DNA of 4,018 nucleotides from a virus (taxonomy: Duplodnaviria; Heunggongvirae; Uroviricota; Caudoviricetes): the IMG/VR virus record IMGVR_UViG_3300021279_000050, one strand, 5' to 3'. The translations under genes were made by a program, and so were the position numbers. Positions 68-2,113 of the stretch are shown piece after piece. Position 1 is the stretch's first letter; each line of letters opens with the position of its first letter. The notes beneath the pieces were generated by a model that saw only the letters and a list, made by a program, of their open reading frames with translations, ran no database searches and had not been told where the DNA came from.

Positions 68-2113
68 ATGGCAACATTCGACGGACATATCGTTGAAGCG
101 TTGATGAAAATGCCAGAAGTTAACGCCATGTATCCGGAGCTTAAGCTGCATGCCATCGGGTGGGTTAAGCATAAATGTAAGCCTGGTGCCAAATGGCCCG
201 AAATTCAGGCAGAGATGCGCATCTGGAAAAAACGTCGCGAAGGTGAACGCAAGGAAACCGGAAAATACACGTCTGTTGTTGATCTCGCCCGCGCCAGAAC
301 CAATCAACAGCACAGTGAAAATTCAACAGGAAAAATCAGCCCGGTCATTGCTGCCATTCATCGCGAATACAAGCAGACATGGAAAACACTGGATGACGAA
401 CTGGCCTACGCTCTCTGGCCTGGTGATGTGGATGCCGGAAACATTGACGGCAGCATCCATCGCTGGGCAAAAAATGAAGTTATCGACAACGACCGCGAAG
501 ACTGGAAGCGTATCTCGGCATCAATGCGCAAACAGCCTGATGCCCTTCGCTACGACCGCCAGACTATTTTTGGCCTTGTCCGTGAACGTCCGATCGACAT
601 TCACAAAGACCCTGTGGCACTGAACAAATACATTACTGAATACCTGACTACAAAGGGCGTGTTTGAAGATGAAGGAAGAAATCAGAGCGCAACTGATACT
701 CTCTCGTCGCCAGTACCAGAAACTGATGCAGTGGAAACGGCAATTCCGGACAACGAAAAAACCGAATGCAAAGTGGAAGTCGAACCATCTGTAGAGCGTG
801 AGGGGCCGTTCTACTTCCTCTTCACCGACAAGGATGGCGAAAAATACGGTCGCGCAAACAAACTTTCTGGTCTGGAAAAAGCACTAGCCTTGGGAGCTAC
901 GGAAATCACAAAAGAGGAATACTTCGCACGTAAAAACGGCACGTACTCAGGTTCACAACAAAATACTGGTGCATCTGACACGACCGCACAACCAGAGCCG
1001 GTAAAAGTTACCGCTGACGAAGTAAACAAAATTATGCAGGCAGCCAATATCAGCCAGCCTGACGCCGATAAGTTGCTTGCTGCCTCTCGCGGAGAATTTG
1101 TTGCAGGGATTAGCGACCCGAATGATCCGAAATGGGTAAAGGGGATTGAAACCCGCGATTCTGTAAACCAGAACCAGCAAGAATCGGAACAGAACGACCA
1201 GAAAGCGGAACAAAACAGCCCAAATACGCAACAAAACGAGCCAGAAACGAAACAACCTGAGCCAGTAGCGCAACAGGAACCGGAAAAAGTCTGCACCGCC
1301 TGCGGTCAAAGCGGTGGCGGCAACTGCCCTGATTGTGGCGCGGTGATGGGTGACGCAACATACCTGGAAACATTCAATGAAGAGAATCAGGTTGAAGTTC
1401 AGGAAAATGATCCGGAGGAAATGGAAGGTGTTGAATATCCGCACAAAGAGAACGCTGGCGGTAATCAGCATCACACCAGCGATAATGAAGCTGGCGGGAC
1501 GGCAAATCCCTTAATTACCATGAACGGTCATCATAAAATCACATCCACCAGCAGAATGTGGCACCACATGATGATCGACCTTGAAACCATGGGAAAAAAT
1601 CCCGATGCCCCGCTTATCTCAATAGGTGCAATATTTTTCGATCCGCAAACCGGAGATATGGGGCCGGAATTTAGTAAGACCATCGATATGGATACTGCTG
1701 GCGGAGTCATTGATCGTGGCACCATTAAATGGTGGCTTAAGCAATCACGGGAGGCGCAATCTGCCATTCTGACCGATGAAATCCCGTTAGATGATGCACT
1801 GCTGCAATTGCGGGAATTTATCGACGAAAACTCCGGCGAATTTTTTGTTCAGGTCTGGGGAAATGGAGCCAACTTCGACAACACGATTTTGCGCCGTTCA
1901 TACGAACGGCAGGGGATCCCCTGCCCGTGGCGTTACTACAACGATCGCGATGTACGCACAATCGTTGAGCTGGGAAAAGCCATGGACTTCGATGCCAGGG
2001 CGGCTATTCCATTCGAAGGTGAGCGCCACAATGCGCTGGATGATGCCCGTTACCAGGCAAAATACGTTTCAACTATCTGGCAAAAACTGATCCCGAATCA
2101 GGCTGATTTTTAA
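68..2113 (+). CDS. Prophage accessory multidomain protein: N-terminal domain of unknown function, acidic low-complexity linker, C4 zinc ribbon, C-terminal DEDDh (DnaQ/RNase T-like) 3'-5' exonuclease domain
   Basis: Single uninterrupted ORF; the frame opens after TAG at 41-43. The ORF track starts at TTG 53, but ATG 68 preceded by AGGAAG (60-65) is the more plausible start. The C-terminal ~185 aa carry the three DEDDh motifs: Exo I MMIDLETMG (D509/E511, ORF-track numbering), Exo II GNGANFDNTIL (D609), Exo III ERHNALDDARYQAKY (H659/D664). CxxC-x7-CxxC lies at nt 1292-1336. The N-terminal ~330 aa have no motif I can assign. Confidence 0.8.
   Translation: MATFDGHIVEALMKMPEVNAMYPELKLHAIGWVKHKCKPGAKWPEIQAEMRIWKKRREGERKETGKYTSVVDLARARTNQQHSENSTGKISPVIAAIHREYKQTWKTLDDELAYALWPGDVDAGNIDGSIHRWAKNEVIDNDREDWKRISASMRKQPDALRYDRQTIFGLVRERPIDIHKDPVALNKYITEYLTTKGVFEDEGRNQSATDTLSSPVPETDAVETAIPDNEKTECKVEVEPSVEREGPFYFLFTDKDGEKYGRANKLSGLEKALALGATEITKEEYFARKNGTYSGSQQNTGASDTTAQPEPVKVTADEVNKIMQAANISQPDADKLLAASRGEFVAGISDPNDPKWVKGIETRDSVNQNQQESEQNDQKAEQNSPNTQQNEPETKQPEPVAQQEPEKVCTACGQSGGGNCPDCGAVMGDATYLETFNEENQVEVQENDPEEMEGVEYPHKENAGGNQHHTSDNEAGGTANPLITMNGHHKITSTSRMWHHMMIDLETMGKNPDAPLISIGAIFFDPQTGDMGPEFSKTIDMDTAGGVIDRGTIKWWLKQSREAQSAILTDEIPLDDALLQLREFIDENSGEFFVQVWGNGANFDNTILRRSYERQGIPCPWRYYNDRDVRTIVELGKAMDFDARAAIPFEGERHNALDDARYQAKYVSTIWQKLIPNQADF
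1556..2110 (+). other. DEDDh-family 3'-5' exonuclease domain (domain within the large CDS)
   Basis: Motif order and spacing D-x-E ... N-x-x-F-D ... H-x-x-x-x-D match the DnaQ epsilon / RNase T / oligoribonuclease architecture. All five catalytic positions are present, so the domain is predicted to be active. Confidence 0.75.

Follow-up and report, generated by a model that had tools for sequence, protein, structure and literature searches.

We analyzed a 4,018-nucleotide (nt) stretch of viral DNA (IMG/VR virus record IMGVR_UViG_3300021279_000050, Caudoviricetes), referred to as a whole as the window, and in particular the long open reading frame (ORF) that precedes its excisionase and integrase genes, xis and int. 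Alignment and gene order showed that this ORF represents the larger part of an intact ydfE, which closes the dicBF/early-left operon of Qin/Rac-like lambdoid prophages just ahead of xis-int. Its product is a paralogue of RecE (exonuclease VIII) in which the PD-(D/E)XK 5'-3' nuclease has been swapped for a DexA-type DEDDh nuclease, and no recT stands beside the gene. We consider it probable, on the evidence given below, that the protein would act as a 3'-5' exonuclease on DNA ends when expressed from the early-left operon. Databases already list the gene, with annotations in many genomes; Pfam families cover all of its folded parts, and its remnant in Escherichia coli K-12 has a name. Unless stated otherwise, coordinates are positions of the window on the + strand, and residues are numbered as in the 823-amino-acid (aa) protein of the family.

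A DEDDh exonuclease domain on a RecE-like scaffold

The C-terminal part of the protein is a predicted DEDDh 3'-5' exonuclease domain of the DexA/Rv2179c type (1565..2080). Pfam PF16473 (Rv2179c-like) matched it with E=1.9e-66; the score of 223.6 bits exceeds the cut-off of 27, and the match spans positions 2-177 of the 177-position profile. The three motifs stand in canonical order, Exo I being IDLETMG (D646/E648), Exo II NFDNTIL (D746) and Exo III HNALDDA (H796/D801). All five catalytic residues, with codons at 1577-1579 (D646), 1583-1585 (E648), 1877-1879 (D746), 2027-2029 (H796) and 2042-2044 (D801), align with D7/E9, D119 and H186/D191 of T4 DexA. D646 and E648 are D509 and E511 in the 686-aa numbering of the initial annotation of this DNA, which had placed intact DEDDh motifs in the C-terminal ~185 aa; the Pfam match, the five residues and the fold all agree with that claim. 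As judged from its sequence, the ydfE protein is very likely an active Mg2+-dependent 3'-5' exonuclease.

Among solved structures, a sequence search returned T4 DexA (exonuclease A) and no other (PDB 8KEL/8KEN, E=6.5e-6), and it shares with the ydfE protein the five catalytic residues and the Pfam family. The AlphaFold2 model of the DEDDh domain was mostly of high confidence (10-residue block means of 66-92), and a Foldseek search with this predicted domain returned DexA 8KEL as the best match (E=2e-8, template modeling score 0.63-0.69), followed by RNase T and Orn; the structural neighbours also include Orn/REXO2 and Cap18 of the cyclic-oligonucleotide-based antiphage signaling system (CBASS). 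The likeness has limits, since DexA stands alone as an enzyme of 227 aa, has additional loops and shares 29% identity with the ydfE DEDDh domain, whereas the ydfE protein carries an N-terminal extension of ~640 aa. Other exonuclease families fitted less well. Pfam RNase_T (PF00929) stayed below threshold on the ORF (21.7 vs 24 bits), and PHROG 192, 'DNA polymerase exonuclease subunit', reached only E=4.6e-5. A proofreading subunit of the DNA polymerase III epsilon type was rejected, NCBIfam giving nothing beyond a partial match to RecE.

That partial match points to the origin of the rest of the protein. When the 823-aa protein was compared with K-12 RecE by BLASTP, residues 262-626 aligned to RecE 278-592 (E=6e-61), and conservation was strongest in a DKLLAASRGEFVxGISDPNDPKWVKG motif, in a zinc ribbon and in an acidic linker. 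The NCBIfam RecE equivalog NF007259 matched residues 246-626 with E=1.4e-81, but its score of 274.9 bits is below the cut-off of 1269. The RecE nuclease domain PF12684 (PD-(D/E)XK) was not found in the Pfam scan, in which K-12 RecE reached E=4e-28. The RecE head domain PF06630 gave no Pfam match either, yet when profiles of YdfE-type heads (16 sequences) and RecE-type heads (PF06630; 25 sequences) were compared by hhalign, they matched with 96% probability (E=3.9e-9, 191 columns). The first ~245 residues are covered by Pfam YdfE_N (PF27430) and YdfE_C (PF27432), according to precomputed matches that come from homologues 89-95% identical to the protein of strain N51 and not from the window ORF itself.

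On these alignments, everything outside the catalytic domain appears to derive from the N-terminal region of RecE by copying and divergence. The ~500-aa N-terminus, to which the initial annotation could assign no motif beyond the ribbon and linker, is therefore no longer without a family: RecE homology and the YdfE_N and YdfE_C families account for it. The statement that the protein is not RecE stands for the catalytic domain and fails for the remaining ~630 aa, which are RecE-like with the zinc ribbon and acidic linker included. RecE of the Rac prophage of K-12 resembles the ydfE protein in further ways. Both genes occupy the same slot near the end of an early-left operon, close to xis-int (recE-recT in Rac), and both products are large proteins with a C-terminal nuclease (823 aa for the ydfE family, 866 aa for RecE), with probable remote homology between their heads and an alignable central region and zinc-ribbon linker. 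They differ in the polarity and type of the nuclease, which is DEDDh (3'-5') in the ydfE family and PD-(D/E)XK (5'-3') in RecE, in the absence of recT downstream of ydfE, and in that Pfam detects neither PF06630 nor PF12684 in the ydfE protein.

AlphaFold2 predicted a protein made up of a head (residues 1-205), a helical core (245-340), a beta/alpha domain (385-435), a disordered region (438-640) and the DEDDh domain (640-820). The window ORF retains the C-terminal part of the head, which is of the YdfE_N type and, by hhalign, a remote homologue of the RecE head (residues 143-205; 68..256; predicted local distance difference test score, pLDDT, ~90). The helical core of the model (374..661) is homologous to RecE ~278-340 by BLASTP, and within the central region it is the part matched by most family members. 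The small beta-hairpin/helix domain that follows (residues 385-435, GPFYFLF...; 794..946; pLDDT 80-87) falls in a gap of the RecE alignment, being absent from K-12 RecE. Foldseek of the N-terminal region against BFVD gave no match at E<=0.001, and no function could therefore be assigned to this region by its fold.

The linker, which is predicted to be disordered and is rich in Q, E, N and P (residues 438-640; 953..1561), contains the zinc ribbon, a CxxC-x7-CxxC motif, CTACGQSGGGNCPDC, located at 1292..1336 by translation and common to K-12 RecE in the alignment. The initial annotation had recognized both this C4 ribbon and an acidic linker, and the ribbon with a Q-rich acidic stretch after it was found as described. 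Residues 471-626 (nt 1052-1519) form the best-conserved stretch of the RecE alignment. Two recE genes showed 84-89% DNA identity to window 1213-1472, which suggests a fairly recent exchange at the linker. An imperfect tandem repeat of 21 nt (7 codons) in 4-5 copies lies at 1172-1275, coding for part of the disordered linker; differences in this repeat may be the reason why homologues vary in length from 823 to 831 aa.

The RecE-like scaffold was found with several C-terminal modules. A search with the central region yielded only 165 relatives among 1.84 billion cluster representatives, and the 65 long relatives among them were classified by phmmer. All four pairings of a YdfE- or RecE-type head with a DEDDh or PD-(D/E)XK C-terminus occur in the 65. 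One long relative (P0163) has a RecE head fused to a C-terminal RecT, and 12 relatives (P0171, P0193 and P0196 among them) carry a third C-terminal module, phrog_2489/7838. By these classifications, the module borne by the scaffold varies from member to member and may be PD-(D/E)XK, DEDDh, RecT or one that is probably Rad52-like, so that annealase modules (RecT and the probable Rad52-like one) are also seen on it. The zinc ribbon was rejected as a family-defining feature because only 7 of the 65 have it; its distribution among the relatives marks a sub-clade.

A Rac-like prophage has the variant that combines a RecE head with DEDDh, with xis-int directly after it and no recT. Many temperate phages carry only a stand-alone DEDDh gene of ~190 aa. 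Those of PhiR40_1, epsilon34 (gp34) and Salmonella phage 118970_sal3 are 54-58% identical to the C-terminal domain of the ydfE protein and lack the RecE-like scaffold, and in the locus examined, that of PhiR40_1, the gene is one of those beside ea22/xis and is int-proximal like ydfE. In Escherichia phage PhiR40_1 this 190-aa homologue (58% identity) lies at 4025-4597, directly after ea22. It is plausible that the 823-aa architecture arose by fusion of such a stand-alone DEDDh gene to a shortened recE-like gene.

Gene limits, operon context and selection

The ORF first reported for the window runs from ATG 68 to the stop at 2113 (68..2113, 681 aa). The stop was confirmed, but the start was not. 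The PHROG 2082 family profile has 823 positions, of which the window ORF matches only 143-823, and in the closest genome, strain N51, the coding sequence (CDS) is 823 aa long (L001:13643-16114), its start lying 358 nt upstream of the first base of the window. Across the gene, the window and its closest genomes are 99.7-100% identical at the DNA level. Of this exonuclease gene of the ydfE family, the window thus contains the 3' ~85% (1..2113), position 1 being the second base of codon 120. Alignment with N51 and translation also revealed a 1-nt deletion at 48..49 (CAC-GG instead of CACAGG), which shifts the frame, so that the upstream frame stops at about nt 102-104. Given the 823-aa family CDS and the missing base that breaks the frame at 48/49, ATG 68 is the internal Met143. 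In the window, then, the gene is truncated at the edge and also out of frame.

Either a true mutation or an error of sequencing may have produced this frameshift. If it is real, the gene would be dead in this sequence, yielding an N-terminal fragment of ~150 aa and at best a product restarted at Met143 without most of the head. We regard this as a serious possibility, though one we lean against. The deletion is missing from all close relatives aligned there (N51 and H56), so that it would be private to this sequence, and the K-12 copy, lost through an IS2 insertion, demonstrates that loss can occur. On the other hand, strain copy H56 is otherwise 100% identical over 1-2113 and differs only by the extra base (2114 nt vs 2113), which means that, bar the deletion, the window sequence is that of an intact copy. 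In addition, the window ends in a 46-nt foldback common to no genome, for which reason the window possibly derives from a low-quality read or assembly and the deletion may be an error.

The genomic context of ydfE is conserved. The order is repressor, ydfA/B/C, (dicF), dicB, ydfD (DUF1482), exonuclease gene, xis and int, and it is kept across prophages with different integrases and attachment sites as well as in the phage records mEp460 and vB_EcoS-813R8. No recT was present next to the DEDDh variants in any locus examined; xis follows directly. The K-12 pseudogene ydfE (b1577) of the Qin prophage is the same gene in the same operon order, standing after dicB-ydfD, and is 97.6% identical to window 1-408. 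It differs in being cut by IS2E after ~300 codons, with loss of the linker and the exonuclease domain. The dicBF operon, ydfE included, is repressed by DicA, and only its DicF, DicB and YdfD products have been characterized (PMC10448788). These data do not fit the view that the gene is cargo or a moron of the type found in the b region of lambda, as had been supposed: it is a conserved member of a repressor-controlled early-left (dicBF/pL) operon. The expectation that its homologues are annotated as exonucleases in E. coli prophages and are uncharacterized agrees with the genome annotations and with PMC10448788, and no published function of the ydfE protein was found in the literature searched. 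In the window, promoter-like sites were fewer than in shuffled sequence and terminator-like sites were not clearly above shuffles, giving no sign of a promoter or terminator of the gene's own, and no RNA element was matched by Rfam.

The gene is widespread. Of 5426 complete E. coli genomes, 3594 contained a match with at least 80% query coverage, at up to 9 places per genome, and the full-length form occurs in 17 phage records, with viable phages such as mEp460 among the carriers. The ORF was intact in all 8 copies examined. In three prophages (L013, L014 and L015) the integrase is frameshifted or truncated and the neighbouring exonuclease ORF is intact, which suggests that the gene is kept while the prophage decays. 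The ratio of nonsynonymous to synonymous substitution rates (dN/dS), pooled over 7 copies, was 0.11 for the head, 0.15 for the core, 0.21 for residues 341-437, 0.45 for the linker and 0.23 for the DEDDh domain. By these ratios, all folded domains, the head included, were shown to be under purifying selection. A family-wide pseudogene or accidental fusion was rejected in view of the dN/dS of 0.11-0.23 in folded domains and the 8/8 intact ORFs.

The window and its prophage junction

On its + strand, the window carries the long ORF (53/68-2113), then xis, then int; on the - strand it contains the 3' end of ompW. The excisionase gene xis (2178..2426, 82 aa) was identified by Pfam Exc (E=1.3e-7) and PHROG 629 (E=3.7e-35), and the lambda-type tyrosine integrase gene int (2404..3534, 376 aa) by Pfam Arm-DNA-bind_1 and Phage_integrase. 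The two reading frames overlap by 23 nt (2404-2426). The position of the exonuclease gene directly upstream of xis-int, as given in the initial annotation, is hence correct. The host gene ompW (3580..3980, - strand, 3' part; Pfam OmpW E=1.5e-49) marks the junction between prophage and chromosome. The best E. coli chromosome matches to the window reach 99.7% identity, and matching chromosomes are annotated as "3'-5' exonuclease / exonuclease", "excisionase", "integrase" and ompW. By this gene content, the window comes from a lambdoid prophage that has inserted beside ompW, and represents its int-proximal end.

A gap of 45 nt separates the int stop from the ompW stop at the prophage/host junction. 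Within it, at 3541-3575, lie three tandem copies of GTTTTGCAGAGG, which could be related to Int or to the attachment site (att). The last 46 nt of the window (3973-4018) are the reverse complement (96%) of the ompW sequence 3904-3949, 24 nt upstream. Genome matches to the window end at 3980 and the foldback was found in no matching genome; it looks like a chimera at a read or contig end and not like biology.

Proposed activity and alternative roles

The reading that we favor, of a RecE paralogue with a 3'-5' nuclease, leads to a speculative course of events. The ydfE protein would be made once the prophage repressor is lifted, and its RecE-like scaffold would bring the DEDDh nuclease to DNA ends, where it might trim or destroy 3' tails. 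With a polarity opposite to that of RecE and independent of an annealase, such an enzyme would process or eliminate linear DNA and would not promote single-strand annealing. By analogy, DNA 3' ends, not RNA, are moderately likely to be its substrate; DNA is favored because DexA, the sole solved relative by sequence, degrades DNA and because the scaffold otherwise carries modules of DNA recombination. Loss of ExoI, a host 3'-5' exonuclease acting on single-stranded DNA, raises linear recombination by RecET/Red ~65-70-fold (PMC13048471). Given this effect, the opposite polarity and the lack of an annealase, trimming of 3' tails appears more plausible than assistance to annealing. The biological purpose could be end processing in the lytic cycle, scavenging as by DexA, or elimination of competing linear DNA.

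Several points weigh against this proposal. Pfam PF16473 is named after the exoribonuclease Rv2179c, and RNA may thus be a substrate. In its full-length form, RecE stimulates linear-linear recombination, but the role of its N-terminal region is itself unexplained (PMC11611040), so that targeting of the ydfE protein to DNA ends is a guess. The best Pfam match of the phrog_2489/7838 module, Rad52_Rad22, lies below threshold (E=0.0018, 18.6 vs 20.3 bits). In this window the ydfE-family gene is frameshifted.

The main rival is a role in defence or superinfection exclusion, in which the nuclease would degrade incoming phage nucleic acid, either modified DNA, as reported for EcD (HREX), or the 3' ends of RNA phage genomes, as reported for the ISG20-like TONDO exonucleases. 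We judge it unlikely, with some weight of evidence behind it nonetheless. The DEDDh domain belongs to the Pfam family of T4 DexA, its sole solved relative by sequence, and EcD, a stand-alone E. coli homologue of DexA, is reported to protect against T4 when borne on a plasmid (PMC12153337). Prophage-borne ISG20-like DEDDh exonucleases with auxiliary domains are reported to block MS2 and Qbeta (PMC13344964), and the combination of a DEDDh and an auxiliary domain on a prophage fits that pattern in a general sense. An operon neighbour, DicB, protects against phage infection (PMC6832061). The gene is moreover intact in decaying prophages, very prevalent, repeated within genomes and under purifying selection.

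Against a defence role, DicA/cI keeps the operon repressed in lysogens, with no transcript reaching ydfE detected (PMC10448788), and viable phages have the gene in their early operon. The scaffold is common to recombination proteins and not to known defence proteins, and the one PADLOC match was rejected, at E=0.025 over 23 residues. The residue signature of HREX is also absent. EcD and the ydfE protein are both E. coli members of the DexA family of DEDDh exonucleases; compared by its description, however, EcD is short and stand-alone and has Ala at the position of DexA D90, a tetramer contact, where the ydfE protein keeps Asp (D718). Of the residues reported for recognition of 5-hydroxymethylcytosine, W152 is replaced by Y766 and D169 by A780, the latter less certainly because of alignment gaps nearby; in the same alignment, S87 of DexA is P in the ydfE domain. 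Viral, genome and metagenome contigs contained no exact copy of the gene-specific 23-mer of the EcD reverse primer, but the construct may be codon-optimized, and no ydfE-family accession was found in the accessible part of Table S3 of PMC12153337. The candidates of the TONDO study, again compared by description, are shorter than 500 aa, unlike the ydfE protein.

The anti-defence function proposed in the initial annotation, by which the protein would degrade a nucleic acid or a signalling nucleotide of host defence, appears highly improbable; retron multicopy single-stranded DNA and cyclic oligonucleotides would be examples of such targets. In its favor, the gene belongs to a phage early operon and codes for a nuclease domain, and the structural neighbours Orn/REXO2 and CBASS Cap18 act on short oligonucleotides. 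That likeness, however, is one of the DEDDh fold in general, recombination modules are found on the relatives of the scaffold, PADLOC gave no meaningful match, and no link by sequence, context or literature to known anti-defence proteins was found.

As a sequence feature, ydfE is ordinary, with annotated copies in thousands of genomes. It is among the most widespread E. coli prophage genes and under clear purifying selection. The residual interest is modest and lies in the mosaic built on the RecE scaffold and in the role of a prevalent gene under selection. Our preferred reading makes the ydfE protein a natural paralogue on the RecE scaffold with a nuclease of opposite polarity, and thereby a comparison for the role of the scaffold in RecE itself. 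This has a practical side, as the ~600-aa N-terminal region of RecE boosts linear-linear recombineering. A bolder extension, which we think rather improbable, is that the RecE-type N-terminal region is a general targeting platform with interchangeable modules and that the DEDDh form is the functional opposite of RecE, which would destroy 3' tails at DNA ends and thereby keep linear DNA that competes or comes in from recombining or replicating. If true, this would explain why ydfE is intact in about two thirds of E. coli genomes, even in decaying prophages.

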